Virus record (IMG/VR): IMGVR_UViG_3300034093_002374 | Coordinates: 3,814 to 67,813 of that record | Direction: 5' to 3' (one strand) | From: a virus | Length of the DNA stretch: 64,000 bases | Shown: piece after piece, positions 18,247-63,309 of the stretch | Layout: the number at the start of each line of letters is the position of its first letter | How positions within the stretch are numbered: the first letter of the stretch is position 1 | Position numbers and translations under genes: made by a program | Notes under the pieces: model-generated | What the model was told of the DNA's origin: nothing | Database searches by the model: none | Seen by the model: the letters and a program-made list of their open reading frames with translations, nothing else

Positions 18247-18777
18247 ATGTTGGAAGGTCTTGTAGCCTCCCTCGCGAGCAAGGGTCTCGGTCTACTCGCT
18301 GGCGCTGTTGCTAAGCGAGGGACAGACTTCATTAAAGAAAAGACAGGTATTGATTTGTCAGCAACAGCTGAAGTCACAGATGACGAAGCCTCAATGTTGC
18401 GTGAGTTTCAGGAAACTAACCAAGTCGAAATCTTGGCGTATCTTACAGCAAAAGATCAAACAAATCTTGAAAGAGAGCGACTGACGTTTACTGATACGTC
18501 GAACGCCAGAGCAATGCAGATCGCGGCGCTGGGTTCTACAAGCAGCTTCGGTAAGTTGTTCGTTTACATCATGGCTTCGTATCTGTTGGTTGTGTCAACG
18601 GTTTACGTTGGTTACATTACCTTCGGTACAATTCCGGAAGCTAACGTTCGGTTTGCTGACGTCATTCTTGGTTTCTTACTCGGTACTGTAATTTCTTCTG
18701 TCATTAACTTTTTCCTTGGCTCTTCGCGTTCAGCGCAGACCAAAGACGATACTATTGCGAGAGCTCTGCATGGATGA
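18247..18777 (+). CDS. Holin-like membrane protein
   Basis: AAGGA RBS; two C-terminal hydrophobic helices ending FFLGSSRS; overlaps endolysin. Confidence 0.7.
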   Translation: MLEGLVASLASKGLGLLAGAVAKRGTDFIKEKTGIDLSATAEVTDDEASMLREFQETNQVEILAYLTAKDQTNLERERLTFTDTSNARAMQIAALGSTSSFGKLFVYIMASYLLVVSTVYVGYITFGTIPEANVRFADVILGFLLGTVISSVINFFLGSSRSAQTKDDTIARALHG

Positions 18778-19423
18778 GTTTAACTACGACGAGAGCAACT
18801 TGTTTGTTGCTATTCGTGAGCTTCTCGGTCGCGGTTTGACGAGTGACGAAGTTCGCAAGGTGCAGTCGGCTCGTGTTCGTGACGCCGTTGCTCAAGTGAC
18901 AACCGCCGTCGTCTCAGGGCAAAACGGTGCAACGGTCGGTATGCAACCGTCACAACGAATTATTGACTTCCTTCACGAGTTTGAAACGCTTCAGTTGGTG
19001 CCTTATAAAGACCCCGGCTCAGCAAACGGTCTCCCCATCACGTGTGGTTGGGGTTCGACGACGCACCTGGACGGTCGCAAGATTCAACTCGGTGAAGCAC
19101 CCTGGACAAAAGAGTACGCGGACCAAGTTTTCAACAAGGATCTTCGTGCCTTTACTGCGGGTCTTAACCTTCTCATCGGTAAGTCAAAAACGTCCCAAGG
19201 ACAGTTCGACGCCATGTTTAGCTTCGCTTACAATTGTGGACTGGACATCGATGAGGACACGAAAGCAGAGGGTCTCGGTGACAGTACGTTGCTGAGAAAA
19301 CATCTGGCAGGTGACTACGCGGGCGCAGCCGCTCAATTCGCAAGCTGGAATAAAAACGACGGGAAGGTTCTTAACGGACTGACGCGTCGTCGCGCTAGAG
19401 AAGCTGAAATTTACGCTTCTTAA
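18770..19423 (+). CDS. Endolysin (GH24 lysozyme)
   Basis: HEFE..LVPYKD...ITCGWG catalytic region, QFDAMFSFAYNCG, STLLRK, GLTRRRARE. Confidence 0.9.
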   Translation: MDEFNYDESNLFVAIRELLGRGLTSDEVRKVQSARVRDAVAQVTTAVVSGQNGATVGMQPSQRIIDFLHEFETLQLVPYKDPGSANGLPITCGWGSTTHLDGRKIQLGEAPWTKEYADQVFNKDLRAFTAGLNLLIGKSKTSQGQFDAMFSFAYNCGLDIDEDTKAEGLGDSTLLRKHLAGDYAGAAAQFASWNKNDGKVLNGLTRRRAREAEIYAS

Positions 19424-19466: not shown

Positions 19467-19495
19467 TGCGCAAATACCGGTATCTTATATGAAAG
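19467..19495 (+). promoter_or_regulatory. Motif B copy 1 (candidate promoter)
   Basis: TGCGCAAATACCGGTATCTTATATGAAAG, 23/29 identical to 42251-42279. Confidence 0.6.
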
Positions 19496-24047: not shown

Positions 24048-24067
24048 GAACCCGTTAACTTAACCCT
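24048..24067 (+). promoter_or_regulatory. Motif A copy 2 (GAACCCGTTAACTTAACCCT)
   Basis: Intergenic, upstream of SSB/replication operon. Confidence 0.65.
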
Positions 24068-24109: not shown

Positions 24110-24763
24110 ATGGCGATTATCAAGAACGCTGAAATCTGGTACTTGAAGTGTGACGAAAAGCGTCCGAACGCAAAGTACAATAAAAAGAACCCGACTTGGG
24201 AAGTTGAGATTCGGACTAACGTCCTTGAAGAAAAGAAGGCTTGGGAGGCTCTTGGCCTTGAGCCCAAAGCAGTCACCGACGAAGAGACCGGTGCGCGGCT
24301 TTACTGGCGTGTCAAGCTGCGGCGTAAGTCGATCAAAGTTGACACCAAGACTAACCCGCCAACTGAAACGCCGAATCCGGCACCAGAAGTCAAGAACGGC
24401 GCTCTGCAACCGATTGACCCTAACACGGTCGGTAATGGTTCTATCGCGAACATTCGTATCTTCCAATATGACTTTACTGATGACGATGGTCAAAAGAAAC
24501 AAGTCAGTGTACTCATGGAAGTTCAAGTCATCAAGCACAAGGTCTACAAGCCCAAGAAGCGCGAAGATGAGTTCACGCCGACTGACACTGAAACCATTCA
24601 ACCCGCCAAAATGGATGACGACGACAATCCTGAAGGCGACTCGGCTCCTGATCACGAAGATGACGGCTACATTGCGCCGCCTGTAAAAAAGCCGCTGGCT
24701 GACGACGACATTCCGTCGTTTACCCCACCGTCAAGTCCTGCTGCGCCTAAAGAAGGCTTTTAA
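24110..24763 (+). CDS. Probable single-stranded DNA-binding protein (T7 gp2.5-like)
   Basis: VGNGSIANIR motif, acidic disordered tail ending in Phe, high-expression codon bias, upstream of DNA polymerase. Confidence 0.65.
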   Translation: MAIIKNAEIWYLKCDEKRPNAKYNKKNPTWEVEIRTNVLEEKKAWEALGLEPKAVTDEETGARLYWRVKLRRKSIKVDTKTNPPTETPNPAPEVKNGALQPIDPNTVGNGSIANIRIFQYDFTDDDGQKKQVSVLMEVQVIKHKVYKPKKREDEFTPTDTETIQPAKMDDDDNPEGDSAPDHEDDGYIAPPVKKPLADDDIPSFTPPSSPAAPKEGF

Positions 24764-34587: not shown

Positions 34588-35040
34588 ATGACTGCTGACC
34601 GCAAGAAGGCATACTTCATGCGCGTTGCGGAGGAGACCGCTCTGCTTTCACATGCTGTAAAGCTGAAGGTTGGGGCGGTCGCCGTCCGAGATAACCGTAT
34701 TATTTGTACTGGCTATAACGGTACCGGTCCTGGTGAAGATAACTGTTGTGAGCATCGTGTTTGGGTGCCGTACGTTTTATCCGCTGGTGGACAGTATGTA
34801 CTTAAAACTAAAGACAACGTCACTCACGCCGAAAAGAACCTCATTGACTTCGCCGCTAGAAAAGGTATTGCTCTTGAAGGTGCCGAGCTTTTCGTAACTC
34901 ACTCACCCTGTATGGCATGTGCGAGGTCAATTGCCAATGTCGGTTTTACTCACGTCTATTACAAAACTAAGTTCTCTCATCTTGAAGGGCTGGAGTACCT
35001 CGAAGAAGCTAGAGGCGTCACAGTCATCGCGCTTGCTTGA
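34588..35040 (+). CDS. dCMP deaminase
   Basis: KVGAV, TGYNG, HAEKN, THSPCMAC zinc motifs. Confidence 0.92.
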   Translation: MTADRKKAYFMRVAEETALLSHAVKLKVGAVAVRDNRIICTGYNGTGPGEDNCCEHRVWVPYVLSAGGQYVLKTKDNVTHAEKNLIDFAARKGIALEGAELFVTHSPCMACARSIANVGFTHVYYKTKFSHLEGLEYLEEARGVTVIALA

Positions 35041-39499: not shown

Positions 39500-39827
39500 A
39501 CGACATCGTAATGGCAACACCATGCGCGATGCAGATCGCAAACGAGCCTTCGGTCTTCAACCTAAAGACAGGTGGCCAGCCGCAGGGCTTCCTTTGCGTA
39601 TTATAGAAACAGGTTGGGGGCCGGTCATTCACGAAGTTCGTTCAATAGGCGACCCTCTTCATCAAACTAAGCGTAAAGGACGACGAGCAGTTGCGCACTG
39701 TCCAAAGTGTGCCACTTGGGTCTGTGCCGGTCATCTAGGTCAACATATAGCAAAACATTATAAAGAAGATCCAAATGGGAATGAAATCAACAACCGTCAA
39801 AAAAGTACTTCGGAAGAAACTCACTGA
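39486..39827 (+). CDS. Hypothetical Zn-finger protein
   Basis: CPKC...GHLGQH. Confidence 0.55.
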   Translation: MGVNKRHRNGNTMRDADRKRAFGLQPKDRWPAAGLPLRIIETGWGPVIHEVRSIGDPLHQTKRKGRRAVAHCPKCATWVCAGHLGQHIAKHYKEDPNGNEINNRQKSTSEETH

Positions 39828-40791
39828 CTGGCAGACGTCCATTACAGACGAGGCGCTTCGCTGCCTTGTGCGTCAAGACACAATTGTATCGGGTGGCTGT
39901 ATTGCCTCTATGCTAATGGGTGATACTGTTAACGACTTTGACATTTACTTCAGAACGCGTGAAACAGCACGTGCCGTCGCTGAGTACTATGTTAAAAACT
40001 TTAATAACACTAAGGGTCTACTTAAACACAAAGCTGCTCACCACATAAATCCTGAATTGCGCGACGAGCGCATCACTAACCTTCGGGGTGAAGAAGAAGA
40101 TCGCATCATCATTTTTATGAAATCTTCAGGTGTTGCTGGAGAAGATCAGACTGAGTATACATACTTTGAGACGCATGCTTCGGAAGAAGCTGAAGACAAC
40201 TTTATGGCGAGTCTCGGCCAGAATGAGTATGGTTACGACAGTCTTGTTGCTGATTCTTTGGGTGTTGCTGAAGAACTGCGTTCTGAAGTTCGTGGCGACC
40301 AAGGCGTTAAGGTAAAGAAAGCAGCGTATCGTCCTGTCTTCCTTACTGACAACGCAATTACTCTTTCTGATCAGGTGCAACTGATAATTCGTTTTTACGG
40401 CACGCCCTCAGAGATTCACGACAACTACGACTATGCGCACGCAATGTGCCACTATGATTGGTGTAATGACTCACTCGTTACGCCGCAAGAAGCTCTTCTT
40501 TCTATGATGTCTAAGGCGCTCATTTACCGTGGTTCTCTTTACCCACTGTGTTCGATGATGCGCCTTCGAAAGTTTTTAGGGCGAGGGTGGCGTATCTCTG
40601 CTGGTCAAATTATTAAGATTGCGCACCAAGTTCGTTCAATCGATTTTAACAATCCAAAAGTGCTTCGTGAGCAACTAATGGGTGTTGACGCCGCCTATAT
40701 GGGCGAGTTGATCAGCGCTATCGAAACGGCTCCCGGCAAGATTGATGAAACGTATCTTGCTAAACTTATCGATGAGGTGTTTGATGCGTGA
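39775..40791 (+). CDS. Nucleotidyltransferase-fold protein
   Basis: IVSGGCIASM...NDFDIYF (GG..S..DxD Pol-beta superfamily signature), YDYAH, RLRKFLGRGW. Confidence 0.65.
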   Translation: MGMKSTTVKKVLRKKLTDWQTSITDEALRCLVRQDTIVSGGCIASMLMGDTVNDFDIYFRTRETARAVAEYYVKNFNNTKGLLKHKAAHHINPELRDERITNLRGEEEDRIIIFMKSSGVAGEDQTEYTYFETHASEEAEDNFMASLGQNEYGYDSLVADSLGVAEELRSEVRGDQGVKVKKAAYRPVFLTDNAITLSDQVQLIIRFYGTPSEIHDNYDYAHAMCHYDWCNDSLVTPQEALLSMMSKALIYRGSLYPLCSMMRLRKFLGRGWRISAGQIIKIAHQVRSIDFNNPKVLREQLMGVDAAYMGELISAIETAPGKIDETYLAKLIDEVFDA

Positions 40792-41298: not shown

Positions 41299-41592
41299 TT
41301 GAAACTTAGCGAGGAAACTATCACAATCTCGCTAGAAGCTGATAAAGTCTGGAAAGCACCTTTACGGCTAAACAACACGCAGTTCATGGAACGTCTCATG
41401 AACTTTTCGCCGTTTGGTGCGTTGGTTCAACCGTTTGTCATTACCGGTCTAAGTACTTATTGTGATTCTATTCTTGCAACACCTTGTCCAACTGAACCTG
41501 GCACCGGCTTGGTTAACGAAATTGCATGGTGGCGTATTGCTGCAGATGTTAAACGTCAGCTTGACGAACAGTATGGACCTGAACCAACGTGA
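41299..41592 (+). CDS. Hypothetical protein
   Basis: Start uncertain; coupled to GNAT gene. Confidence 0.55.
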   Translation: MKLSEETITISLEADKVWKAPLRLNNTQFMERLMNFSPFGALVQPFVITGLSTYCDSILATPCPTEPGTGLVNEIAWWRIAADVKRQLDEQYGPEPT

Positions 41593-42044
41593 TTCGTCCG
41601 GCCAGGCTTGAAGACATACCGGCGTTGATACCGATGGGGTTAGCTTTCCACTCGGCATCCGGTTATGGCTCTTTCATTTCAATAGACGCCATAAGTCTAG
41701 CAAAATCCCTTCGGCGTATGATACGCGCCGAAGGGAACGCTCGTCTAATTGTTTATGAACGCGCCGGTGTCGTCATGGCAGCTGCCGGTGTTATCACTAT
41801 GCCCAGCTTTTTTAATGCTGACGTTATTGTTGGCAGCGAACAGTTTATTTTTGTGTCGCCTGATTTTAGAGGTGCGTCACACGGTTCTAAATTGATCGAG
41901 GCTTTAGAAAAAGTCGCTAAAGAGTTAGGTTGTCAAACCCTTTCTTTGGCTTGTCTAGAAACCCTTTCCCCAGAGTTGTTGCATAACGTATACCTATCGC
42001 ATGGTTATACGTTGATGGAACACATGTACATCAAACGGCTTTAA
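41589..42044 (+). CDS. GNAT-family N-acetyltransferase
   Basis: IRPARLEDIPAL, IFVSPDFRGASHGSKLI acetyl-CoA motif, YLSHGY. Confidence 0.85.
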   Translation: MIRPARLEDIPALIPMGLAFHSASGYGSFISIDAISLAKSLRRMIRAEGNARLIVYERAGVVMAAAGVITMPSFFNADVIVGSEQFIFVSPDFRGASHGSKLIEALEKVAKELGCQTLSLACLETLSPELLHNVYLSHGYTLMEHMYIKRL

Positions 42045-42212
42045 AACGAGACGTAAACTTTCTACCCCGCAAAAAACGCGCGTGGGCAGGCGTTTCTACC
42101 GCCGATGATGCACCCCTGGCCGACGCGAACTCGCTTGCGTCGCCCCCGGCCTCCCCGAAACGTCGGGGTCTGTCGGTCCACCCGGTCTGCGTGGCATCCA
42201 GCCGCTGCTCTT

Positions 42213-42232
42213 GACCCCGTTGACTTAACCCT
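42213..42232 (+). promoter_or_regulatory. Motif A copy 3 (GACCCCGTTGACTTAACCCT)
   Basis: Intergenic, upstream of 42316 gene. Confidence 0.65.
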
Positions 42233-42250
42233 ATATCTTGAAACCATTTC

Positions 42251-42279
42251 TGCGCAGATTAGGGTAACTTATATGATAG
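42251..42279 (+). promoter_or_regulatory. Motif B copy 2 (candidate promoter)
   Basis: TGCGCAGATTAGGGTAACTTATATGATAG. Confidence 0.6.
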
Positions 42280-42315
42280 GAATCAATACCTATCATCAAC
42301 CTTAAGGATGACACC

Positions 42316-43050
42316 ATGTCGCAACAACTGAAGCAAGTTTTCCAAGCCGCCGATGGCACGACTTTCGACACGCGTGCTGATGCTCTGGATTACATGCGTC
42401 GGCCGCTGATCGCAGCTGCCTTCAATAAGCTGACCGCTGACAATGCGGACCTGACGAACTGGCTCATTGCTGAGCAAGACGAAATTGAGAACGCCTTCGA
42501 CACGGGTACGATTCGTCGTATCACCAAGACCGAGAAGAAGCATCTGGCTTCCGCGCTCGATCGTGTTGTTGAGCTTGCCAAGGACGACCGCAAGCTGGCC
42601 TTCCTGGCTGAGCATGCCGAAGGTCTCAAGACGACCTTCCGTTACCCGCCTGTCACGCGTATGTCGGACGACGAGAAAGCCGTTGCCGCTAAAAACACGC
42701 TTATGGCTCGCACCAACAACAACGCTCAACTGACTGACTGGATTCTGGGTAACAAGGACGCTATCCTTGCTGCCTACCAAGCCGGTGTTGAGAAGCGTGA
42801 AGTCTCGCCGAAAGCCACCGAGGCTCTGCTTGCGTACCGCATCAAGACTGCGGAAGAAAAGCTGGTCGCTTTGCGCGCCAATGCTGAAAGCAAGCCGGAA
42901 GACATCGCTGAGCTGGAAGGCAAACTTGCCGCTATGAAGTCGGGCGTTGCCCCGACGATGGCCGCACCTTCGGCTGCTCCCGCCGTGGAAGCTGAAGAAG
43001 TCGTTGAAGAGGTGGTTGAAGAAACCGCCGAAGAAACTGTCAACGAGTAA
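42316..43050 (+). CDS. Probably highly expressed hypothetical protein with internal duplication
   Basis: AAGGA RBS; codon bias like tail tube/SSB; repeat NADLTNWLIAEQDEIENAFDTG / NAQLTDWILGNKDAILAAYQAG; acidic tail. Confidence 0.85.
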   Translation: MSQQLKQVFQAADGTTFDTRADALDYMRRPLIAAAFNKLTADNADLTNWLIAEQDEIENAFDTGTIRRITKTEKKHLASALDRVVELAKDDRKLAFLAEHAEGLKTTFRYPPVTRMSDDEKAVAAKNTLMARTNNNAQLTDWILGNKDAILAAYQAGVEKREVSPKATEALLAYRIKTAEEKLVALRANAESKPEDIAELEGKLAAMKSGVAPTMAAPSAAPAVEAEEVVEEVVEETAEETVNE

Positions 43051-43063
43051 TCAACAAAATTTC

Positions 43064-43352
43064 GACCCAAGTGGGTCCCTCTAGTCAGAGGCTAACTGAC
43101 AGTGTTAACGTCGATGGAGACACGCCTAAGCCGCGTGTCGTCAGAACTATTTGCAGGGCGTATCTTGTGTACGCTGCATGTCTAGCCTGACTCTTAAACG
43201 AAGTGCGCTTCAATTGGAAGCACTCGTCCAGCGCGTTTAACGCACTCCTCTTGAAGGGAGCTTCACCCTACTTTGTCAAGAAAGTAATGTGGCTCTGGGA
43301 CTTGACGCCTATGCTGTCGAAAGCATGAGGCTCCCTTCAAGCGGACTGCGTT
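43064..43352 (+). ncRNA. Candidate structured non-coding RNA
   Basis: No ORF; at least 9 stems including a perfect 12-bp helix and a 6-bp loop pseudoknot. Confidence 0.6.
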
Positions 43353-43353
43353 C

Positions 43354-43388
43354 AGCCCATTGTCCAAAGTGACGGTGGGCTTTTATTT
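43354..43388 (+). terminator. Rho-independent terminator
   Basis: AGCCCATTGTC-CAAAGT-GACGGTGGGCT followed by TTTATTT. Confidence 0.75.
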
Positions 43389-43429
43389 AGTCCGAAACCT
43401 AACAACCTAACCGCAAGGAGCGACCGTCT

Positions 43430-44852
43430 ATGAGTGATGACCAACAACGAGATGTAGCACCACCGCAACGTGGTCCGCACAAGCCTAAGCAACAAAAGCC
43501 ACGTGTTTACAGAGTTGTTTCAGTGACGCGGTTCGGACGAACTTCTCACATCGATTACCATGACGCTGAGACAGCTTTCATGACGTATGAGAACAAAAGA
43601 AACCTCATCAACTTCATGTTTGTCGCGCTCTTTCGTGACGGCCATCTGCTGCTAAACGATATTAAAGAGTACGTTGAAACAGAAGAGGAAGCTTGAAAGG
43701 CTGTTAGTTAACAATGGCAAAAATCAGTGAAATCGTAGCGGCACTGCTGCTAGTCAAAGAAGAAGAAGGCAATCTAGAAGTTGTTGTTGTTAAAGAAAAA
43801 GAATTTCGAGCACCGACACTTGAAAGCGCTTTTGTAGAGCTTTGTGATATAAGAGGCAAAACTACAGCACGTGTAGTCATTATAAAGGAGCTTTAGTGAC
43901 TAAACAAGTTCCAATTAAGCCTATTCGTCGTTTAATGCCTGTAACACCGTCATCGGCGTTACTTCGCAGTCAATTTATATACGACATTGTTCACTCTAAA
44001 CGTAAACTTGCTGTAGACCTTGATACAGGCGTTTTAACGATCTTGTCAGGACGTCACCTTCTCGGACCTGAACCAAAGTACGTGTTTCGTTCAGGTGGTG
44101 CAATTATTAGTGTGCCGCTGTCACGTGATTGGGGTGAGGCAAAAGAGCAACTTTTAGAACTTTCAATTGACGTACCTCGTGGATCATTTTGTCATGGTTC
44201 ACGCTGTGTGTCATTTTTAGGTTCCTGGAGAAATTTCAGAGATACCGTAAGTTTTATTTATAATAAAACAAGAAAAGCGAGCAATTAAAATTATACCCAC
44301 TCGGATGAGTGAGGCTTTGAGAGGAGTCTTAAAATGCCTTTTAACAATACAAGCTAAAGAGGTCAACCTTGGAGCTACGAGAAGAAATTGAGCAATCTGC
44401 TGACGCCCTTGAAAAACTCTTTTACAAGGCTGCAGATGCACGCGACAAAGCCAAAGGCCCTGAAAAGACACGGCTACGTCGTATTACGAAAAGAATCGAT
44501 GCGGCACTTTCTTTGATGGAGCACGCTGAAGATGAATCTGAAAGAAACACCAATGTTGCAAGTGCAAGAAATACTGGCGCAACTACCTGAGTCAACAAAA
44601 GAATATGTAGCTACACTTCTTGTTTGTCCTAGTCATCGTTTAGACAAAAACGCAAAACTGGCGCATAATGTTATTGTTGGTTACGCCAACTGTACGCCGT
44701 CTGATGCAAAAGAAGTTTGTGATATACTTATTCGACTTGGTAGAGAGTGCAATAAATGGGAGCTTCGTGAAAAGTGGGAAGCTGCTTTTCATGACATTAA
44801 TACAAAACCACTTGGAACAAGATCGCATGCAACGGGTCATCGTCTTATCTAG
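43430..44852 (+). other. Run of small hypothetical CDS (43430-43696, 43714-43896, 43896-44288, 44369-44590, ~44553-44852)
   Basis: Tightly packed + strand ORFs, several with RBS; no recognisable motifs. Confidence 0.6.
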
Positions 44853-49894: not shown

Positions 49895-50122
49895 CGCAAC
49901 TTTTGTCTAACCTTCCGCCCAAGTCTCCTCTCATCACACACGGTGAGAGGTTTCTTGGTCTGAAGAGGGACAGACTTGCTTCACTGGCACTCTCTCTAAC
50001 TCACCGTTGCCAGTATGCTAACCCAAAAGGAGGCTGTTATGTAAAACGCTTGGGCTCTCGACCACAGCTTAAAACTGTCGATGACCTGTGATGTCATATT
50101 AAACTCACCCTCCCTAATAAAC

Positions 50123-50196
50123 TTTCTCCTCAACTTTACTTGTCCTTCGTGGATAGGTGAAGTTGAGGAGAGTTCTTTCTTTATTTTTTTATTTTT
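50123..50196 (+). terminator. Very long hairpin terminator
   Basis: 22-bp stem TTCTCCTCAACTTTACTTGTCC / GGATAGGTGAAGTTGAGGAGAG (all non-WC pairs are G-U) then a long T tract. Confidence 0.8.
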
Positions 50197-50224
50197 ACTG
50201 GCTAACTCAACTTAGCCTTGACCA

Positions 50225-50244
50225 GACCCCGTTAACTTAACCCA
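50225..50244 (+). promoter_or_regulatory. Motif A copy 4 (GACCCCGTTAACTTAACCCA)
   Basis: Just after the strong terminator, at the start of the packaging/late region. Confidence 0.65.
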
Positions 50245-50548
50245 AGGAGGTCTCCCGAGAGACTCCCCCTCGCCAGAGGGCGACGAGGAATCACTCTTCG
50301 ACTCCAGGGGTTTTTGTTGTAACAAAACCCCTCTCCCAGAGACGTGGGCGTCCCCAAGATATATTTATAAAGATTTTGGTGACGTTTAGTTATTAAACAC
50401 TTCTTTAAAGAGCGGGATGAGGCTTGGTGATGACAGTGATCGGTGATGCATTTCTTGACTTTTCGATGCCGGTCATGTGGTGTTATTTGTCAACCCGCCG
50501 TCATCAACTTTCTGTACAGGCAAATACAATAAAGCTATCTATACATAA

Positions 50549-50890
50549 ATGATAGGAACAACAATGGAAAAGATTATTCTGGTGATCGCTATTATTGCGA
50601 TCGTTTGCGGTGTTGCTTGGATTGCTTTGGCTTTCCTTGAGCCACTTATTGATCGTGTTGGCAATAAAGTCAAAGATGTGGTGCTAAAAGAATATGTCCC
50701 ACCAGCGCCGTTGGCTTCGTTGAATACTATTCAACATATTCCGATAGCTGTGCCAACCGACTCAGGCCGCTCACTGCAATTTCTACGTGCCGGTGTTATT
50801 AAGAGTGTTGACCGCCGTGGTCGTACAATCTATCGCCGTAACGGTCGTATTATTTCTCGTAAAGAGGCAGTGCAACTGGAAGTTAAATGA
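50549..50890 (+). CDS. Membrane-anchored hypothetical protein
   Basis: N-terminal TM helix; start may be ATG 50564. Confidence 0.65.
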   Translation: MIGTTMEKIILVIAIIAIVCGVAWIALAFLEPLIDRVGNKVKDVVLKEYVPPAPLASLNTIQHIPIAVPTDSGRSLQFLRAGVIKSVDRRGRTIYRRNGRIISRKEAVQLEVK

Positions 50891-52855: not shown

Positions 52856-53451
52856 ATGTCTACTATTCTACATACAGGTTTGCGAAGCTTGCTAGAAACG
52901 GTTTATGGCGTCGCTCGTAGTGAACGTCGTATTGTTATCGTTATTGAAGACGGTAAGGCTCTAGAAGTGCGTACCGAGCATGAGCCATCAACACGTGTCA
53001 TACCTTCTTACAGCGAGTTTGTAGAACATTTTGTTGAGAAACGCTTTGAGCCGGTTACACCAAGTCCTTTTAAAAGTCCTACGGCTGCTGACGTACCGCC
53101 TTTCTTTCAAGCACCTACGTCAGGTGAAGGCGGGGCCACGATTTCAGAGGTCGTTCAACAACTCTTGGACGCTAATCCAGGAGCGACGCTTTCGACTATG
53201 CCAGACACAGCAATAACAATCAGTCTCAAGGAGGATCCACCATGGTCGGTTTAGCGATCCTCTCTGCGCTGCCTTGTAAGGCCTGTAACAAACGTCCTGT
53301 GTGGCATACTCAAATGCGTAACACGTTGAGGTGTCCTCCCGGTCAAGTGTTTCTGTCGGACAGCGAAGAAATCTTTTGTGACTCTTTTCTGACAAGATCG
53401 ACGCAAGACGTAGCGGTCCAGGACTGGAATGAACGGCAAAGACATGGCTGA
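52856..53451 (+). other. Two hypothetical CDS (52856-53254; 53242-53451 Cys-containing)
   Basis: Coupled ORFs with RBS. Confidence 0.55.
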
Positions 53452-54838
53452 AGTCAACCTACATGAAGGTCAAACAGCCGTTTTTAAAGACATCTTTCTA
53501 AACTTTGACGACACGCTCGGAGAAGACGGTCTTCCGCTTCTTCTTACAATGGTGTACGTTGTAGCCTGCTGCTCACGTGGTTGGGGGAAGTCTTTTGAGA
53601 TGACCGTTTGTGCAATGACCGCTGTGGTTGAGTTGATGGAACTTGATGACGACGTTCCTAACAAGAACGTTTGGATTATTGCGCCTACGTATGACCAAGT
53701 TACCGAAATTTACTGGCCTATCCTAATCATGTTAGGTGCCACCGAGTACGCTGAGAAATCGTCTAAATCAGATGGTTACTTAGAGTTTCCCGGCAACGTT
53801 CGTCTAGAACTCATCTCGTATGAGTCTGTTGAACGAATGCGTGGTAAAGGCGCTTATTTTGTGGGTTGGGACGAGGTCTCTTCTTGCCACAAAGGAATGC
53901 CCGCTAAAGAAGCCTGGGAAGGCATTATTCAACCGTGTATCGTGACGCGTTGGTCTCCTAAAGCCGCAAGAATGCACGGCTCTAAACGAGCCGGAAGGCT
54001 TTTTGCAATCAGTACTCCTAAAGGGTACAACTTCTTTTATGATATGTACAACTACGCTGAGACAGATCCTGAATGGAAAAGTCATCATTTTGATTTTACT
54101 CAGAGTCCTTATCTTGACGAAGAACAAATCGAGAAGCTACGCTCTAAGATGGACCCCATCAGGTTTGCACAAGAATACCTGGCAACCTTTAAAGATTCTG
54201 GTAACAACGTCTTTTACATGCTCGACAGAAAAGTCCATGCACGAAGAGACCTTGCACCATTCAGACCTCCGGCAGACGATTCTAGCCGTGATGGTGAAGA
54301 TGTTCATGTGTGTATCGACTTTAACGTCGGTATCATGGCTGCATCGTGTTTTGCCTTAAGAGGCAGTCAAATGCAGTTCTTGCATGAATTCAAAGGGCAC
54401 CCTGACACAGACGCGCTCGGTAAACGTCTTCAAGAAAAATTTCGAGGACATAAAATTATTGCGTACCCTGACCCTTCAGGTAAGGCAAGAAAATCATCCG
54501 CAGCAGTAGGTGTCACTGACTTCTCTATTTTGCAATCTTACGGCATTGAAATACGAGCACGCTCAAAAGCGCCTCCTATTGTTGATTCTGTGAACGCTGT
54601 TAATAGACTTCTCATGAATGCCAACGGTGTAGTGTCTATCTTAATTGATCCCGTAGCATGTCCTGGAACACTCGACTCTCTTGAAAGAACTTCATGGGTT
54701 GACCGTAATCCAGATTTGGCAACGATTGATAAAACAGCCGGAGTTGAACACTTCTCTGACGGTGTCCGTTACGCCGCTGAATACTTGTTCCCTGTTACCG
54801 GTGGTACTAAGAAAACTTCAATGGGTCGTTCGTTCTGA
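53444..54838 (+). CDS. Terminase large subunit
   Basis: CSRGWGKS Walker A, IAPTYDQ, GWDE Walker B, ISTPKG, CIDFN, YPDPSG, HFSDGVRY nuclease motifs. Confidence 0.93.
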   Translation: MAEVNLHEGQTAVFKDIFLNFDDTLGEDGLPLLLTMVYVVACCSRGWGKSFEMTVCAMTAVVELMELDDDVPNKNVWIIAPTYDQVTEIYWPILIMLGATEYAEKSSKSDGYLEFPGNVRLELISYESVERMRGKGAYFVGWDEVSSCHKGMPAKEAWEGIIQPCIVTRWSPKAARMHGSKRAGRLFAISTPKGYNFFYDMYNYAETDPEWKSHHFDFTQSPYLDEEQIEKLRSKMDPIRFAQEYLATFKDSGNNVFYMLDRKVHARRDLAPFRPPADDSSRDGEDVHVCIDFNVGIMAASCFALRGSQMQFLHEFKGHPDTDALGKRLQEKFRGHKIIAYPDPSGKARKSSAAVGVTDFSILQSYGIEIRARSKAPPIVDSVNAVNRLLMNANGVVSILIDPVACPGTLDSLERTSWVDRNPDLATIDKTAGVEHFSDGVRYAAEYLFPVTGGTKKTSMGRSF

Positions 54839-55531: not shown

Positions 55532-55888
55532 ATGTCTGATAACCAATTTCAGCCGCGTGTCGCCAACATTGCTTATCAAAGCGTTTTTGGTTCTAGTGTA
55601 GTGTTTGCAGTCGTGACGATGCAAAACGGTTTCATTGTCACCGGTCAAGCGCCTTGTGTTCGCCTTGAGCACTTCGATCAACAAGCCGCTATGGAAGCTG
55701 CGCTTCAAGACGCCATGTCAAAAGTTTTCATGCTTGAATCGTATTTCCTTGCTGAAGTCGCTATGCAGGAATTCCAACGCGCTCAACTTGAAGCTGATCG
55801 TGTTCAAGAAGAACGTGCTGAAGAAATAACGCTTGAAGCAGCACGTACTCGTCAGGCCGATTCATCGCACCTTGTTGAAGCGCAGTGA
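55532..55888 (+). CDS. N4 gp49/Sf6 gp66-family protein
   Basis: VTMQNGFIVTGQAPCV..EHFD...A..DA.SKVF.LE.Y pattern recalled for this family. Confidence 0.7.
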   Translation: MSDNQFQPRVANIAYQSVFGSSVVFAVVTMQNGFIVTGQAPCVRLEHFDQQAAMEAALQDAMSKVFMLESYFLAEVAMQEFQRAQLEADRVQEERAEEITLEAARTRQADSSHLVEAQ

Positions 55889-57822: not shown

Positions 57823-60800
57823 ATGACGGCAGCAATCATTACGCGCGCCACGGCGGGAACGGGTGCCACCGTCAAAGGAGCACCTCTCACAAACGCTGAG
57901 GTTGACACGAACTTTATCAACATCAACGCCGAAGTTGATCTTAAAGCTGACTATGCAAGTCCCAAACTTGGGGCGGGTTCGTTAGCGTCGCTGACTACTG
58001 GTACTAATAATACAGCGCTTGGTGTCAACTCTCTTACGCTAAACACGTCGGGTAGTACCAACACAGGCGTAGGCCGTAATACGCTAAACGCAAACACAAC
58101 AGGTACTGATAACACCGCCTCAGGTGCTTTTGCGCTTTTGTCCAACACGACAGGCTCGTATAACACAGCAGACGGTGGTTATGCGCTGCAAAACAACACG
58201 GTTGGCAGTAACAATACCGCAGTCGGTCACAGTGCTCTTGTGTCTGCTACCACAGCCAACAACAACACTGCTGTCGGCGCTTACGCACTGGACGCTAACA
58301 CGACGGGCACCTACAATACCGCTATGGGCGTGAACGCCCTCGGGGCGACTACGACAGGCAACTACAACGTCGTAATCGGGGGAGCCGCCGGAACGAACAA
58401 TACGACCGGATCACTAAACACAGTAGTCGGGTACACCGCTCTGGCGTCAAATACGACGGGCTCACAGAACTCCGCCTTCGGCGCGCAGTCGATGCACAAC
58501 AACACCGAAGGCTACTTTAACGCCGCCTATGGCGCTAACACGCTGTACGCAAACACGACAGGTATCCAGAACACTGCTATTGGGTGGGGTGCGCTAAACC
58601 TAGCTACTACCGCTTCTAACAACGTTGCTGTTGGCGCTTTTGCACTGGATGCCAACATTACAGGCGCGGGTAACGTTGCGGTTGGCTACAACTCGCTCGG
58701 GGCCAACACAACCGCCAGCAACAACAGCGCATTCGGTGTTAACGCACTGCAAAGCACTACTACAGGTGTCGATAACGTCGCGGTAGGGGCCAGTGCTTTG
58801 GCAACAAATACGACGGCTTCTAACAATACAGCTGTGGGTGTAAACGCCTTGTTTGCTAATACCACAGGCGCTAACAATGTGGCTATTGGCCTAAACAGTC
58901 TTGATGCTAACACGACGGGTGCCGAGAACGTCGCGCTAGGGGCGAGCGCGCTTGGGGCTAACACCACGGGCGCGAATAATGTTGCCGTAGGCAATAGCGC
59001 ACTCAGCGCGAACACTACTATTTCAAACCTCACGGCTGTCGGTGTTACGGCGCTACGTGATAACACAACCGGCACTAACAACACCGGACTTGGTCGCGCG
59101 GCACTTCAAGTCAATACGACAGGCAGTGAAAACACTGCCGTCGGTACCTACGCGCTACAAAACAATACTACGGGTGGTAGTAACACAGGCACTGGCTATC
59201 AGGTATTGTTCAGGAACACGACAGGAACTCGCAACTCGGCGTTCGGCCTTAACAGTGCTTTTGATAACACGACCGGTACTGACCTTGCAGGCTTCGGCTA
59301 CGCCGCGCTCGGTGCCAACACGACCGGTACCCTCAACAGTGGTTTCGGCTCTTACGCACTTTATTACAACACCACGGGTGCCGGAAATACTGCCGTAGGT
59401 TACTCTGCACTGTTTTTGAACACGACCGGTACCGTTAATACGGCTGTCGGTCGTAGTGCTATGCAAGCTAACACAACAGGTGAGTACAACGCGGCACTCG
59501 GTTATGTCGCGCTCGCCGGAAACACAATCGGTATCTACAACACCGCAATCGGTGCGTTGGCTCTTTACTCGGCCACAACCGGTAGCTTCAATACCGCGCT
59601 CGGTGGAAACACGTTGAGGTTTGCTTCAACGTCAAGCAACAATATTGCGGTCGGCTACAACGCCCTTTATACAAACACTACAGGGGCACAGAATATCGCC
59701 GTCGGTGTTGGAGCGTTGAACTCTAACACGACTGCGGACTACAACATTGCAATCGGCTACTTAGCGCTCACGGGCAACACAACCGGCAGCCAAAACCTTG
59801 CTGTAGGTACAAGTGCGTTGTTTTCTAATACAACCGGAACGCAAAACTCTGCTTTCGGTTTTCAATCGCTTTATTACAACACAACTGGATATAACAACGT
59901 TACTCAAGGTTATAATACGTTGTTTGCCAATGTTAGTGGCGCTAATAATACGGCAATTGGACACAGCGCGCTCGCGGCAAACACTGCCTCTAATAACACG
60001 GCTGTTGGTGCAAACGCTCTAGACGCTAACACCACGGGTACTTACAATACCGCTGTTGGTTCAGGAGCGTTAGGAGCTAATACAACGGGCGCTGATAACG
60101 CTGCGTTTGGCGGGTTAGCACTAGTTACTAACACGACCGGTATTAACAACATTGCTATCGGCACTGTGGCTTTGCATTCCAATACCACAGGTAGCTACAA
60201 CATAGCTAACGGCGTTAACGCGCTACTTAACAATAGTACTGGAACTGGCAACATTGGTGTCGGTCAAGACGCCCTTAGAGCCAACACCACGGCCTCCAAC
60301 AACATCGCAATTGGCGCGTACGCGCTGGACGCTAACACGACGGGCGCTAGCAATGCGGCGGTGGGCTATAGTTCGCTTAGCGCTAATACAACTGGCGTAG
60401 GAAACGTAGCTGTCGGTGTGTATACACTGTATGCAAATACAATCGGACAAAACAATGTCGCTATTGGTCCAAGTGCACTAGAAACAAACACTACAGGCAG
60501 TCAAAATACAGCCGTAGGAATGCAAGCACTTTTGTATGCTACGACTGGCAATTATAACGTCGCTGTCGGTGCAGCGTCTTTGGATGCTTGCACTACAGGC
60601 TCCGACAACACTGCTGTAGGATCTAGTGCCCTTAGTTCTGTAACTACGGCGTCAAACAACACCGCTGTTGGTAGAGCGGCTCTAAGAGACACTTCAACCG
60701 GGCAAAATAACGTAGCCCTTGGCTATCAAGCGCTAGCAAGCAACACGACAGGTGTTGAAAACGTAGCAGTTGGTGTTAACTCGCTAGTAGCCAATACTAC

Positions 60801-63309
60801 TGGTTATTATAATACCGCTATTGGTACTTATGCACTAACTTCTAACACAACTGGCTTTACTAACGTAGCAGTTGGCATGAGCGCTTTGACGGCTAATACA
60901 ACAGGCGCATATAACGTATGCCTTGGTCTTTCAACGTTCTTTAGCAACACCACCGGTAATAACAACATCGGCGTAGGTTATACCGCTGGCTATTATAATA
61001 CGACTGGTGTTGAAAACATTGCAATCGGCGGTTCGTCGCTACAAGTAAACACTACTGGTAATTCTAACTGCGCCATTGGGCAACAAGCCTTGTTGTATAA
61101 CTCCACGGGGAGCAATAACGTAGGCATTGGTTCAGGTGCACTTCGAGCTAACACCGTTACCGATAACACGGCTGTGGGTGTAAATGCAGGTTATAACACT
61201 TCTACCGGTGAACGTAACGTGTTTCTTGGACGCGCGGCGGCACAAACTAACACAACTGGTAGTTATAACATTGCTGTTGGTTACACGGCTTTGAATTCAA
61301 ACACTACAGGTGGCAATATTGTCGCCGTTGGTTACAATGCGTTGTCGGCCAACACAACAGCTTCACACAACACGGCAGTCGGTGCTTACTCGCTTCAAAC
61401 TACTACAACGGGTAATGCTAACGCAGCCGTTGGCTACAATTCTATGGGTTTGAATACAACCGGAGCAGAAAATTCTGCATTTGGTTATTCAGCCATGGCG
61501 TCTAATACAACCGGCTCTTATAACACTGCAGTCGGCATTGTAGCGTTGAATGCTAACACTACAGGCCACAATAACGTCGCCGTCGGTCGTAGTGCGTTGC
61601 CTGCCAACACAACTGGTGCTTATAATACGGCACTCGGTGCTCAGAGTCTTTATAGTAATACAACGGCGAGTCTTAACGTTTCTATTGGTTACGGCACGCT
61701 GTATGCTAACACAACAGGCGCATATAATACGGCTGTTGGTACGTACGCTTTGGACGCAAATACGACGGGCCAAGATAACGTTGCGGTTGGTTACAACTCG
61801 CTAGGGGCGAACACAACGGCAAACAACAATATTGCTATCGGCTCTAACATAATGTCGTCTAATACGACCGGTGCGCAAAACTTTGCCGCTGGTACGTATG
61901 CAATGGCTTCTAACACGACCGGTTCGGAAAACGTTGCCATTGGCTTCCAAGCGTTGCTGAGCAACACAACCGCAAGTTACAGCGTCGCAATCGGCCGTAA
62001 TGCTTTGCTGAATTCTACTGTTAATGCCAACGTTGCAATTGGTTGTTTCTCACTCGCCGCGAACACGACAGGTACATATAACGTAGCTGTCGGGACGTAC
62101 GCGTTAGAAGATAACACAACCGGTTACTCTAACGTCTCTGTCGGTTACAACTCAATGGCTGCAAATACGGTAGGCAGCGAAAATGTGGCCGTTGGTTTCT
62201 TTGCGCTTACTAGCAACACAACTGGCAGCTACAACACTGCTATGGGTATTGCGGCGCTATACTCCACTACGACTGGCAGCTACAACACTGCAGTTGGTGC
62301 CGGTAGTTCAGAGAAAGTAACTACAGGTGCTAATAATACAAGCATCGGCTATCGTGCACTTTACAACAACACAAGCGCCTCCAGTAACGTAGCAGTCGGT
62401 TCAAATGCGCTAATTAACAACACAACCGGCTCACAGAACACAGCTGTAGGTACGGCGTCATTGGCAACCGCCACGACGGCTGATCTTAACACAGCTATCG
62501 GCGTGGCTACTTTGGCCGCATCAACGACCGGCACTCAGAACACCGCCGTTGGCGCGGAAGCCCTGGACGCTAACACAACCGGCAGTTATAATATTGCTGT
62601 TGGTTATGGGGCGGGCGGTGCCAACACAACCGGTAGCTATAATACTGTTGTTGGTCGTTCGGCATTCTTAACAAACACCTCAGGTAGTAGCAACACTGCG
62701 CTTGGCTACGCAGCACTGTATGCTTCAACAACGGGTGACAGCAACACGGCTGTCGGTAACAGCGCTCTAAGTGGCAACACAACTGGTACTCAAAACGTAG
62801 CGATGGGTCTAGGCGCACTAGAAAACAACACAACCGCGAACTACAACACCGCTGTCGGTGTGCAGTCGCAGCAGGTAAACACAACCGGCACGCAGAACAC
62901 CTCGATCGGCCACCGCGCTTTGTATCAGAATACAACCGGCTCACAGAATGCCGCGTTTGGCTTGAGCGCGATGGAAAGTAACACTACTGGCCAAGACAAC
63001 GTCGCCCTTGGTCGTTACTCTCTCCATACTAACACCACCGGCAACGTAAATATCGCCATCGGTCACTACGTCGTCTGTGACAGCAGTACCGGCAGCAACC
63101 AAATCAACATCGGCAACGTTTACCGCCATAATCGTCTGGTTCATACACCTGTCACGCTTGCCACTCTCAACGCTTTTGTCGGCCTAGCGACGGGCACCCG
63201 AGCAATGTGCTCGGATTCAAATCATAGGAATTTCGATCAAACTGTCTCCGGTGGCGGTAGTAATACTGTGCCTGTGTGGTACAACGGTTCTAACTGGGTC
63301 GTTGGTTAA
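57823..63309 (+). CDS. Long beta-helical fibre/adhesin (~120 x 14-aa repeats)
   Basis: NTTGxxNxAxGxxAL repeats, YadA-head-like; KGAPLTNAEVDTNF N-terminal motif. Confidence 0.88.
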   Translation: MTAAIITRATAGTGATVKGAPLTNAEVDTNFININAEVDLKADYASPKLGAGSLASLTTGTNNTALGVNSLTLNTSGSTNTGVGRNTLNANTTGTDNTASGAFALLSNTTGSYNTADGGYALQNNTVGSNNTAVGHSALVSATTANNNTAVGAYALDANTTGTYNTAMGVNALGATTTGNYNVVIGGAAGTNNTTGSLNTVVGYTALASNTTGSQNSAFGAQSMHNNTEGYFNAAYGANTLYANTTGIQNTAIGWGALNLATTASNNVAVGAFALDANITGAGNVAVGYNSLGANTTASNNSAFGVNALQSTTTGVDNVAVGASALATNTTASNNTAVGVNALFANTTGANNVAIGLNSLDANTTGAENVALGASALGANTTGANNVAVGNSALSANTTISNLTAVGVTALRDNTTGTNNTGLGRAALQVNTTGSENTAVGTYALQNNTTGGSNTGTGYQVLFRNTTGTRNSAFGLNSAFDNTTGTDLAGFGYAALGANTTGTLNSGFGSYALYYNTTGAGNTAVGYSALFLNTTGTVNTAVGRSAMQANTTGEYNAALGYVALAGNTIGIYNTAIGALALYSATTGSFNTALGGNTLRFASTSSNNIAVGYNALYTNTTGAQNIAVGVGALNSNTTADYNIAIGYLALTGNTTGSQNLAVGTSALFSNTTGTQNSAFGFQSLYYNTTGYNNVTQGYNTLFANVSGANNTAIGHSALAANTASNNTAVGANALDANTTGTYNTAVGSGALGANTTGADNAAFGGLALVTNTTGINNIAIGTVALHSNTTGSYNIANGVNALLNNSTGTGNIGVGQDALRANTTASNNIAIGAYALDANTTGASNAAVGYSSLSANTTGVGNVAVGVYTLYANTIGQNNVAIGPSALETNTTGSQNTAVGMQALLYATTGNYNVAVGAASLDACTTGSDNTAVGSSALSSVTTASNNTAVGRAALRDTSTGQNNVALGYQALASNTTGVENVAVGVNSLVANTTGYYNTAIGTYALTSNTTGFTNVAVGMSALTANTTGAYNVCLGLSTFFSNTTGNNNIGVGYTAGYYNTTGVENIAIGGSSLQVNTTGNSNCAIGQQALLYNSTGSNNVGIGSGALRANTVTDNTAVGVNAGYNTSTGERNVFLGRAAAQTNTTGSYNIAVGYTALNSNTTGGNIVAVGYNALSANTTASHNTAVGAYSLQTTTTGNANAAVGYNSMGLNTTGAENSAFGYSAMASNTTGSYNTAVGIVALNANTTGHNNVAVGRSALPANTTGAYNTALGAQSLYSNTTASLNVSIGYGTLYANTTGAYNTAVGTYALDANTTGQDNVAVGYNSLGANTTANNNIAIGSNIMSSNTTGAQNFAAGTYAMASNTTGSENVAIGFQALLSNTTASYSVAIGRNALLNSTVNANVAIGCFSLAANTTGTYNVAVGTYALEDNTTGYSNVSVGYNSMAANTVGSENVAVGFFALTSNTTGSYNTAMGIAALYSTTTGSYNTAVGAGSSEKVTTGANNTSIGYRALYNNTSASSNVAVGSNALINNTTGSQNTAVGTASLATATTADLNTAIGVATLAASTTGTQNTAVGAEALDANTTGSYNIAVGYGAGGANTTGSYNTVVGRSAFLTNTSGSSNTALGYAALYASTTGDSNTAVGNSALSGNTTGTQNVAMGLGALENNTTANYNTAVGVQSQQVNTTGTQNTSIGHRALYQNTTGSQNAAFGLSAMESNTTGQDNVALGRYSLHTNTTGNVNIAIGHYVVCDSSTGSNQINIGNVYRHNRLVHTPVTLATLNAFVGLATGTRAMCSDSNHRNFDQTVSGGGSNTVPVWYNGSNWVVG

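Follow-up and report, generated by a model that had tools for sequence, protein, structure and literature searches.

In coliphage N4 (PMC4496689) the early genes are transcribed by a virion RNA polymerase and the middle genes by a second phage polymerase. A locus that may be governed by a programme of this kind is described here in a stretch of 64,000 nucleotides (nt) of viral DNA, called the window, which comprises bases 3814-67813 of the 67.8-kb virus record IMGVR_UViG_3300034093_002374 (CheckV completeness 86%). The locus occupies positions 42214-43389 of the window and is one monocistronic transcription unit built around the gene of a 244-amino acid (aa) protein. The virus is an uncultured freshwater siphophage, and the public runs containing its genome are lake-water and freshwater metagenomes. 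Its nearest cultured phages are the Naomiviridae roseophages DSS3_VP1 and DSS3_PM1, which, like the lake phage, are of the siphovirus morphotype (PMC8323127).

The best reading of the locus, to which a probability of about one half was assigned, is a monocistronic and very strongly expressed unit working within an N4-like two-polymerase programme, with cis-acting structures in its mRNA and an abundant phage protein as its product. The unit contains two conserved motifs (A and B), a leader hairpin, the gene and a terminator, the codon usage of the gene is capsid-like, and both the motifs and the gene order are conserved across the clade.

Conserved motifs A and B

Motif A (ACCCCGTTRACTTAACCC) was found four times in the window, always on the + strand (18144, 24049, 42214 and 50226), against 0.02 copies expected. 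A fifth copy in the genome is sited between the large polymerase gene, which it directly follows, and the scaffold and capsid genes, the scaffold gene coming just after it, and two of the window copies precede the lysis-region genes (18144) and a 217-aa gene resembling those of single-strand DNA-binding proteins (SSB; motif at 24049, gene start at 24110). The five complete related genomes carry 3-7 copies each (5/5), exclusively on the coding strand, and a reversed control pattern gave 0 hits. In four of these five genomes the motif stands 11-13 nt after the large polymerase open reading frame (ORF) and in the fifth (G005) 169 and 283 nt after it, a place that, going by the gene order of the lake phage, would again be upstream of scaffold and capsid. 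The comparison was extended to 30 related viral loci in which the homologue of the 244-aa protein is 39-53% identical, and among the 25 unique ones motif A was located at most 300 nt upstream of the homologue start in 22, motif B in 5 and both in 3. Motif A has the attributes of a T7-type promoter, namely a conserved stretch of about 18 nt or more, a single strand, few copies, a place upstream of genes and a polymerase gene in the same genome; in the related loci its conservation extends up to AACCC(T), and a conserved initiation box is absent.

The core of motif B (GGTAWCTTATATG) has + strand copies at window positions 19479 and 42263 (genome 23292 and 46076) and one match with 1 mismatch on the - strand, the reversed control pattern giving 0 hits; the relatives contain 1-4 copies. 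Alignment of 14 sites yielded an extended consensus of about 25 nt, consisting of a GCG box, an A-run and then GGTATCTTATATG, with TATATG at its end, and in our reading these sites lack sigma-70-type spacing. In 11 of the 14, a hairpin of -5 kcal/mol or better directly follows the motif, and the stem sequence varies from site to site, which indicates selection on pairing and not on sequence. All five genomes in which motif B and the 751-aa polymerase gene were both looked for (the lake phage, G001-G003 and G005) have the motif on the strand of that gene and some 0.9-2.5 kb ahead of it, the distance in the lake phage being 1.65 kb from the copy at 19479-19491. This position suggests that it marks an early transcription unit making the second polymerase. 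A longer string around motif B occurs a single time in the window, and the short version of its tail (TATATGATAGGAA) was not above chance, with 2 hits that were equalled by 16 of 100 shuffles.

The conservation of both motifs in relatives sharing just 40-55% protein identity, with their strand bias, indicates that they are strand-specific regulatory signals; motif A would correspond to a middle/late-class promoter and motif B to an early-class promoter. A literature search on either motif string returned no relevant paper. It has also been considered that the motifs are operator, replication or packaging signals and that the G+C-rich unit entered the genome recently from a foreign source. In relatives, motif A has an almost palindromic core (GTTAA-N-TTAAC), of the kind that a dimeric protein would bind, and the G+C content (GC) of the unit, 0.55, is above that of its flanks. 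This explanation is nevertheless very unlikely in view of the restriction of both motifs to the coding strand with an empty reversed control, of their location in the gaps between genes, immediately ahead of coding sequences (those of scaffold/capsid and the SSB-like protein among others), and of the hairpin and ribosome-binding site that come after motif B. As for the foreign cassette, the high GC reflects a third-position codon bias common to the capsid and tail genes, and the synteny of the gene with its neighbours throughout the clade shows that it is not a recent import.

A sigma-70-like pair, TTGACC-17-TATCTT (42211-42239), which overlaps motif A in this copy only, was taken as a chance match (4 matches in the region versus 1.8 expected). 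A third conserved motif of 24 nt, CCTGAGTATGTCnnAAAACTGCTC, is present once in the genome of the lake phage (window 19434-19457), about 20 nt before motif B; in the relative G001, 2-3 tandem copies of it stand right after the homologue of the 244-aa gene (C1:54951-55009), and a similar string is located after the homologue in locus L024. The 217-aa protein encoded directly behind a motif A copy (24110-24763) has the fourth-highest codon adaptation index (CAI), an Asp-rich acidic C-terminal part and a terminal Phe. It gave no match to a family model, and to our eye it looks like a single-strand DNA-binding protein of the T7 gp2.5 type.

Two T7-type RNA polymerase genes

Profile searches have revealed two T7-type RNA polymerase genes in this genome, one of which encodes a fusion with a Mu F head-packaging domain. 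The smaller polymerase, of 751 aa, is encoded within the window. In the 3.8 kb before the window a truncated second polymerase-like gene, of which only the end is present, is followed by the genes of scaffold, major capsid, adaptor and tail terminator. This truncated ORF at the genome start (L038:2-619) matches positions 700-785, the C-terminal part, of phrog_414 (expectation value, E, 3.5e-7). In all five complete relatives its counterpart forms the last part of a longer open frame (1543-1778 aa), and the frame of G001 (L052:239-4876) scored with both Phage_Mu_F (50.6 bits, cut-off 29.6) and RNA_pol (48.5 bits, cut-off 22). The gene of this fusion of about 1550 aa lies directly before scaffold and major capsid, with the RNA_pol domain at the C-terminus of the protein, and the fusion is also conserved in EBPR siphovirus 1 (gp49) and in the Naomiviridae phage DSS3_VP1. 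Proteins with a Mu F domain are packaged and injected, and the fusion is probably a capsid-delivered polymerase in a siphophage. A literature search that included PMC5512222 and the main text of PMC8323127 yielded no description of such a fusion or of this phage clade in the text covered.

From these positions a transcriptional programme can be proposed. The large Mu F-polymerase protein would be packaged and injected, would read motif B early and would switch on the small polymerase, which would then read motif A. The 244-aa gene, having both motifs, would be transcribed throughout infection.

Codon usage and RNA libraries

The effective number of codons (Nc) of the 244-aa gene is 35.8, with a third-position G+C content (GC3) of 0.62, and among ORFs of at least 120 aa only the major tail gene has a stronger bias (Nc 34.8); a shorter ORF of 117 aa at 55532-55888 has an Nc of 33.9. 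When the scaffold, capsid and tail genes were used as reference, its CAI was 0.766, which ranks third among 62 ORFs, behind major tail and major capsid.

The gene is covered by RNA-library contigs from two studies, and these assembled contigs show presence in RNA libraries and cannot show starts, levels, ends or strand, or rank genes. Contigs of run X11 cover 42434-43110 and nothing else within 3.5 kb, and contigs of run X20, from a divergent relative, cover 42245-43187 together with parts of the neighbouring genes. The two right-hand ends differ and were discarded as uninformative on the 3' end of the transcript. The gap of X20 over motif A, between a contig end at 42217 and the next start at 42245, would fit a start downstream of the motif and was likewise set aside, contig ends being no evidence.

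An RNA-library contig of a divergent relative, of 452 nt, has 23 differences, 18 of them in 315 nt of coding sequence (CDS), 1 in the first 137 nt of the 3' untranslated region (UTR) and 4 unplaced. So few changes in the early 3' UTR argue against this part of the RNA being junk. A DNA variant contig, X9 (43233-43481), has 14 differences and 4 gaps.

Organization of the transcription unit

The coordinates of the unit and of the window genes that are referred to elsewhere are collected in Table 1. An earlier note on this DNA, made from its letters, had described the locus as the only one with motifs A and B stacked, followed by a leader hairpin, one 244-aa gene with the codon bias of high expression and a terminator, and had regarded it as a dedicated, highly expressed module. 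This description has held up well: A and B are at most 50 nt apart only at 42214/42263, the leader hairpin is present with 8 bp (42273-42280 with 42289-42296), the ORF at 42316-43050 has the third-ranking CAI, and the terminator is canonical, with a G+C-rich stem at 43354-43381 that precedes a T run (U in the transcript; z score, z, -3.7). Conserved promoter motifs and a terminator of its own, a codon usage equal to that of capsid and tail genes and the RNA-library contigs all support a self-contained, highly expressed unit.

The leader hairpin begins within the 3' end of motif B; a repeat search gave its arms as 42273-42283 and 42286-42296. AAGGA or AGGA was found at the place matching the Shine-Dalgarno-like sequence in most related loci. 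The spacer upstream of the motifs contains just short frames, and no family match was obtained for any of them.

Table 1. Features of the 42214-43389 unit and selected genes of the window (window coordinates).
Feature	Position	Strand	Evidence or remark
Endolysin gene	18716-19423	+	PHROG scan
Gene of the 751-aa T7-type RNA polymerase	21129-23384	+	phrog_414, E 1.3e-113
GNAT acetyltransferase gene	41589-42044	+	PHROG/Pfam scans
G+C-rich non-coding spacer between GNAT gene and promoter motifs	42045-42213	+	GC 0.53-0.55, versus about 0.45 in the flanks
Motif A, ACCCCGTTGACTTAACCC	42214-42231	+	Putative middle/late-class promoter
Motif B with upstream GCG box, TGCGCAGATTAGGGTAACTTATATG	42251-42275	+	Putative early-class promoter
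Leader hairpin, 8-bp stem ATGATAGG/CCTATCAT, 8-nt loop	42273-42296	+	Fold prediction
Shine-Dalgarno-like AAGGA, 7 nt before ATG	42304-42308	+	Read from the sequence
Gene of the 244-aa protein	42316-43050	+	ORF, homologues, models, codon usage
Two small 5-bp hairpins right after the stop codon	43064-43091	+	43051-43100: -13.5 kcal/mol, z -2.1
Long-stem element	43239-43352	+	27-nt arms, 89% complementary, 60 nt apart, around three small stem-loops
Intrinsic terminator	43354-43389	+	11-bp stem with 6 G-C pairs, 6-nt loop, then TTTTATTT
Terminase gene	53429-54838	+	PHROG/Pfam scans

The 3' region of the message

Downstream of the gene, 43051-43395 folds at -133.7 kcal/mol (z -5.4), and the minus strand folds equally well (z -5.6). 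The signal is concentrated in 43236-43355 (-55.1 kcal/mol, z -6.9, with 0 of 200 shuffles as good) and in the terminator, and the fold of 43100-43240 was not significant (z -1.6). The structured RNA announced in the earlier note does exist, confined to the 120-nt long-stem element plus the terminator, with a similar signal on the opposite strand. The long stem was predicted to have 6+3+17 pairs with single-base interruptions, which would provide the duplex of at least 20 bp of an RNase III site (as in the T7 R sites and lambda sib), and the element is a candidate site for a double-strand ribonuclease (RNase III type) or for a stabiliser. In our reading 43051-43389 is the 3' UTR of the message, with two small hairpins, the terminator and a duplex of about 25 bp, which would be suited to a double-strand ribonuclease or to the arrest of exonucleases.

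Several other identities of this region were tried and rejected. A hidden small gene is not indicated, no ATG-started ORF of at least 20 aa being present, only GTG/TTG frames; a degenerate transfer RNA (tRNA) was dismissed when searches for tRNA and transfer-messenger RNA (tmRNA) genes and Rfam gave no match; a mobile inverted-repeat element does not agree with the single copy in the genome; and the direct-repeat array of an iteron-type origin is absent from the 3' region. No tRNA or tmRNA genes were detected in the window. The search of the whole window against Rfam 15 returned 0 matches at the gathering score, and at E <=10 only terminator-like hits of 15-16 bits, versus thresholds of 49.5-50 bits, were obtained.

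The RNA has no recognizable counterpart in the relatives. No similarity was found in any of the 30 related loci (nhmmer gave no hit and blastn only chance matches of <=22 nt, E >=0.7) or in the five complete relatives (best match 16-26 nt, E 0.02). Of the 26 loci that reach the next ORF, 21 (ten of them near-identical) have <=133 nt behind the homologue, which leaves room for a terminator only. None of the five relatives with long gaps has an RNA homologous to that of the window, and four of these gaps fold strongly (L002, z -4.7; L003, z -7.0; L006, z -3.3; L029, z -8.4), the fifth (L005, z -0.2) having no unusual fold. The L003 gap contains a tRNA-Met gene (L003:3796-3872), 244 nt after the stop codon, which explains much of its fold, and in three other loci tRNA genes are found 1.7-2.6 kb downstream of the homologue stop codon. 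The tRNA genes downstream of the homologue in relatives (Met, Leu, Thr, Lys) are at L003:3796-3872, L002:5277-5360, L007:5272-5432 and L027:6187-6263. With no homologous RNA, mostly short gaps and an unconserved downstream synteny, the slot behind the gene is variable and the RNA of the window is a lineage-specific occupant. Closer relatives were sought in metagenome scans, with the 244-aa protein and with an alignment of the four closest proteins, and with an exact-stem DNA pattern, all without a match; a viral-contig scan with the same alignment gave two distant loci only.

These data bear directly on the protein-RNA module of the earlier note, in which the abundant protein would bind the structured RNA encoded behind it, forming a ribonucleoprotein for host takeover or counter-defence. 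As parts of one unit, the protein gene and the RNA are necessarily transcribed together, in a divergent relative the CDS varies more than the opening 137 nt of the 3' UTR, each repeat of the helical product closes with an invariant basic residue, and four of the five relatives with long gaps have strongly folding, non-homologous 3' regions. Against this idea stand the absence of a similar RNA (0/30 loci and 0/5 genomes with one), the short gaps of 21 of 26 loci, the tRNA-Met gene that accounts for much of the L003 fold, the near-neutral to acidic and not basic core of the protein, and the absence of an Rfam family match. Two of the checks that the note had proposed point the same way, since homologues mostly come without a downstream RNA, and structure prediction followed by fold searches, including Foldseek, found no RNA-binding fold. 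As to host takeover or counter-defence, evidence for or against it did not emerge. The module is accordingly regarded as highly improbable.

A regulatory role of the RNA, either as a processed small RNA derived from the 3' UTR or as an operator for self-repression by the protein, was judged quite unlikely. The 120-nt element is far better folded than its shuffles (z -6.9), includes a nearly continuous duplex of about 25 bp and follows an early 3' UTR with few substitutions; no internal promoter of motif A or B type is present, however, and the element is not conserved past the closest lineage. The RNA contigs, which end at 43110 and 43187, before the long-stem element, are neutral on this point.

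The 244-aa protein

The protein was modelled with AlphaFold (two models; pLDDT, the predicted local distance difference test, 81.8 and 80.4). In the models a beta-hairpin is followed by three helix triplets, each made of one long helix and two short ones, then by a C-terminal helical hairpin and a disordered acidic tail. The N half matched the C half with E 2.8e-11, and comparison of the repeat units gave E 1.4e-13 for 1 versus 3, 6e-5 for 1 versus 2 and 2.3e-3 for 2 versus 3; an invariant Arg closes each repeat (R68, R115 and R161). The internal repeat proposed in the earlier note is thus real, and it is three-fold, by the unit matches and by the three helix triplets of the model, instead of two-fold. 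The models depict a helical protein with three repeats, belonging to an uncharacterised family of phage proteins.

In a large protein collection 67 homologues were found, nearly all of them metagenomic and the three closest 86%, 82% and 68% identical, and an exhaustive profile search of 1.84 billion proteins yielded 175 clusters at 50% identity. The sole GenBank phage record with a homologue is EBPR siphovirus 1 (gp9, 39% identity). Upstream of the gene the order ligase, 338-aa protein, 148-aa protein, 244-aa gene is conserved, and the downstream order is not. The strongly acidic tail (net charge -8 to -13) is confined to the four closest members. No match was found to a Pfam or NCBIfam family, the PHROGs search gave two hits only (E 0.007), the PDB sequence-profile search gave no relative, and the ESM Atlas contained no usable match (best template-modelling score, TM, 0.31).

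One metagenome source labels a homologue as 'dsDNA-binding SOS-regulon protein', which is the COG name of YebG, and the N-terminal unit aligns with Escherichia coli YebG across the whole domain. A comparison of the N half with a YebG alignment was carried out with hhalign and gave P 4.4e-4 over 64 columns, the YebG alignment being a shallow one of 12 enterobacterial sequences that are 76-92% identical. Its score of 25.8 exceeded all of 150 column-shuffled controls (mean 10.8, standard deviation 2.1, maximum 18.7), and the C half gave P 0.08. PF07130, the YebG family, was absent among 25 of the 62 families listed for 35 family members. The YebG-like solved chain 3erm_A, which was found by sequence, was absent from the best 50 Foldseek and VIA-align rows for the core model.

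Two identities were rejected for this protein, that of the scaffold protein, a scaffold gene (phrog_206) already sitting before the capsid gene, and that of the SSB, a separate 217-aa acidic-tailed protein, the SSB in our reading, following another motif A copy. The role options were ranked with a DNA-associated accessory protein first, a host-directed inhibitor or decoy second, and the ribonucleoprotein and autoregulation readings last. The most likely guess is that this abundant protein associates with DNA and assists in phage DNA metabolism or transcription, and this is the weakest step of the whole interpretation.

A host-takeover or anti-defence factor, inhibiting or imitating a host protein and produced from the same cassette architecture, would agree with the early-class motif B upstream, with the acidic to neutral core and the net charge of -8 to -13 in the four closest, tailed members, with the failure to detect an enzyme or DNA-binding fold, and with the location of the gene among small genes of unknown function. 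Yet motif B is upstream in only 5 of 25 unique relatives versus 22 of 25 for the middle/late motif A, the position of the gene beside ligase and replication genes is constant, most of the family has no acidic tail, and the codon usage implies structural-protein amounts, above the usual need of an inhibitor. This possibility was consequently considered doubtful.

Genome context

The + strand carries every gene of the window. The siphophage gene set was established by PHROG scans and includes the tape-measure protein gene (2051-11824) and genes of the distal tail protein and tail proteins; the same scans found genes of DNA polymerase, primase/helicase, ribonucleotide reductase, a dCMP-deaminase-family protein and ligase. 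The dCMP-deaminase-family gene is at 34588-35040. In DSS3_VP1 and DSS3_PM1 thymidine is replaced by deoxyuridine in the DNA, and a dCMP-deaminase-family enzyme serves as dCTP deaminase (PMC12697855).

The 338-aa protein (39775-40791) corresponds to phrog_4400 and is encoded two genes upstream of the 244-aa gene throughout the clade. It has no Pfam match and contains near its N-terminus a GG...D.D motif, which we take to recall nucleotidyltransferases of the Pol-beta type such as CCA-adding enzymes.

The largest non-coding stretch of the window, 49895-50786, comprises a T-rich terminator-like region, the motif A copy at 50226 and several G+C-rich hairpins, and it also holds a second match to the tail of motif B (TAAATGATAGGAA at 50546). 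Its fold is about as exceptional as that of the cassette RNA, the sliding window at 50101 ranking 3 of 1061. Repeats were found in two large genes, one encoding an 1828-aa virion or tail-spike-like protein (57823-63309) with dozens of diverged 51-nt (17-aa) repeats, and the other a 1657-aa tail protein (12995-17968) with collagen-like 9-nt repeats of the Gly-Pro-Thr type at 16972-17244.

Evaluation of the proposed strongly expressed unit

In the preferred reading, that of a strongly expressed unit in a two-polymerase programme, transcripts from motif B would start with a 5' stem-loop, and every transcript would have a 3' UTR with the long-stem element of about 25 bp and would end at the intrinsic terminator. 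The 5' and 3' structures would act in cis, as protection from ribonucleases and/or as a processing site, and the stabilised mRNA would bring the 244-aa protein to structural-protein levels.

Several results weigh against this reading. Concerning the RNA, the best window of the 3' region ranks only 4 of 1061 sliding windows of the genome (-2.7 standard deviations), and two of the three better-ranked windows begin inside long coding ORFs (at 2461, within ORF 2051-11824, and at 11821, at the junction of that ORF with 11829-12419). The 3' element, missing from all 30 loci and all 5 complete relatives, cannot be essential to the family. Concerning expression, just 4 of 13 related loci have their lowest Nc in the homologue, and in 4 more it ranks second lowest; the RNA-library contigs attest presence in the libraries and no level of expression; and the proposed assignment of each polymerase to its motif is drawn from position alone. 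Concerning a DNA-associated role of the protein, the conserved core is near-neutral to acidic, with an isoelectric point mostly of 5-6.5, an atypical value for a protein that binds DNA generally. None of the fold searches rose above background: the best E was 0.58 and 1.2 with Foldseek against the PDB and 0.16 in BFVD, and VIA-align gave a best Z of 6.2 that involves the C-terminal helical hairpin only and 4.8 on the core. The relationship to YebG has an hhalign probability of just 33%; HMMER with PF07130 (gathering 27.5 bits) gave no row at E <=10 for 4 family members or for the genome of the lake phage; YebG was not among the 175 profile hits, from a library that carries no names, all of which fit the length and pattern of the family; and in the literature covered YebG is known just as a member of the SOS regulon.

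A more daring version has also been considered, in which the three-repeat protein would be a new abundant nucleic-acid-associated protein, such as a genome coat or cofactor, needed in stoichiometric amounts by the two-polymerase programme and controlling itself by binding the long-stem element. Co-evolution of protein and RNA, lineage by lineage, would then explain the non-homologous folded RNAs found at the same place in relatives. This version was rated improbable.

If the strongly expressed unit is accepted, the cassette would be a clean natural example of 'maximum expression' in a phage, combining two promoter classes, a 5' stem-loop, capsid-grade codons, a structured 3' UTR and a terminator. 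Proteins made in capsid-like amounts outside the virion module are usually central to phage biology, as are SSBs, nucleoid proteins, shells and decoys, and for that reason the 244-aa family, with its 175 clusters and without a Pfam family, a recognisable fold or a cultured host system, merits a biochemical look. We regard the context that explains motifs A and B as the most interesting result. The two motifs provide a putative promoter map for a lake-phage clade that seemingly joins a siphovirus body with an N4-like injected RNA polymerase, and, if this is true, they would constitute compact orthogonal promoter/polymerase pairs.

Comparison with known systems

To E. coli YebG (PF07130, b1848, DNA damage-inducible) the 244-aa family has a weak profile likeness, in which the N-terminal unit is aligned with almost the entire domain, made up of a beta-hairpin, a helix and a helix pair with a conserved L..W motif. 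YebG differs in having one such unit in 96 aa, whereas the phage proteins have three units, a helical hairpin and a tail in 183-250 aa, and in being SOS-induced, whereas the phage-encoded gene would be constitutively strong.

The roseophages DSS3_VP1 and DSS3_PM1 resemble the lake phage in genome size (70-75 kb) and encode a counterpart of the 751-aa polymerase that is 34% identical. Their large head protein, annotated as 'minor head protein-like', is 45% identical over the polymerase end, and its gene is immediately followed by a hypothetical gene and the main coat gene. A profile search of both phages gave no homologue of the 244-aa protein, and no motif A was found there between the large head protein gene and the next gene. 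The main text of PMC8323127 mentions RNA polymerase 0 times.

With the late cassettes of T7 and T3 the unit has in common a phage-specific motif of about 18-25 nt, a stem-loop at the putative 5' end, capsid-level codons, a strong hairpin terminator and a predicted duplex of about 25 bp fitting RNase III. The 3' half of motif A in relatives (AATTAACCC) resembles, as we presume, the upstream part of the T3 promoter. The lake phage differs in its two stacked promoter classes, in a motif A without a conserved initiation box and in a cassette 3' UTR of about 300 nt.

The promoters of N4 are sequence-specific hairpins, whereas those after motif B differ from site to site in sequence and in the size of the loop. 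The lake phage is furthermore a siphophage with a tape-measure protein, and its packaged polymerase would be of about 1550 aa, with a C-terminal polymerase and Mu F near the N-terminus, and not of about 3500 aa. The likeness to N4 lies in the general scheme: two T7-type polymerases, here one with a head-packaging domain and encoded in the head module, and two unrelated conserved promoter-like motifs, known here from sequence, one of which stands ahead of the second polymerase gene.

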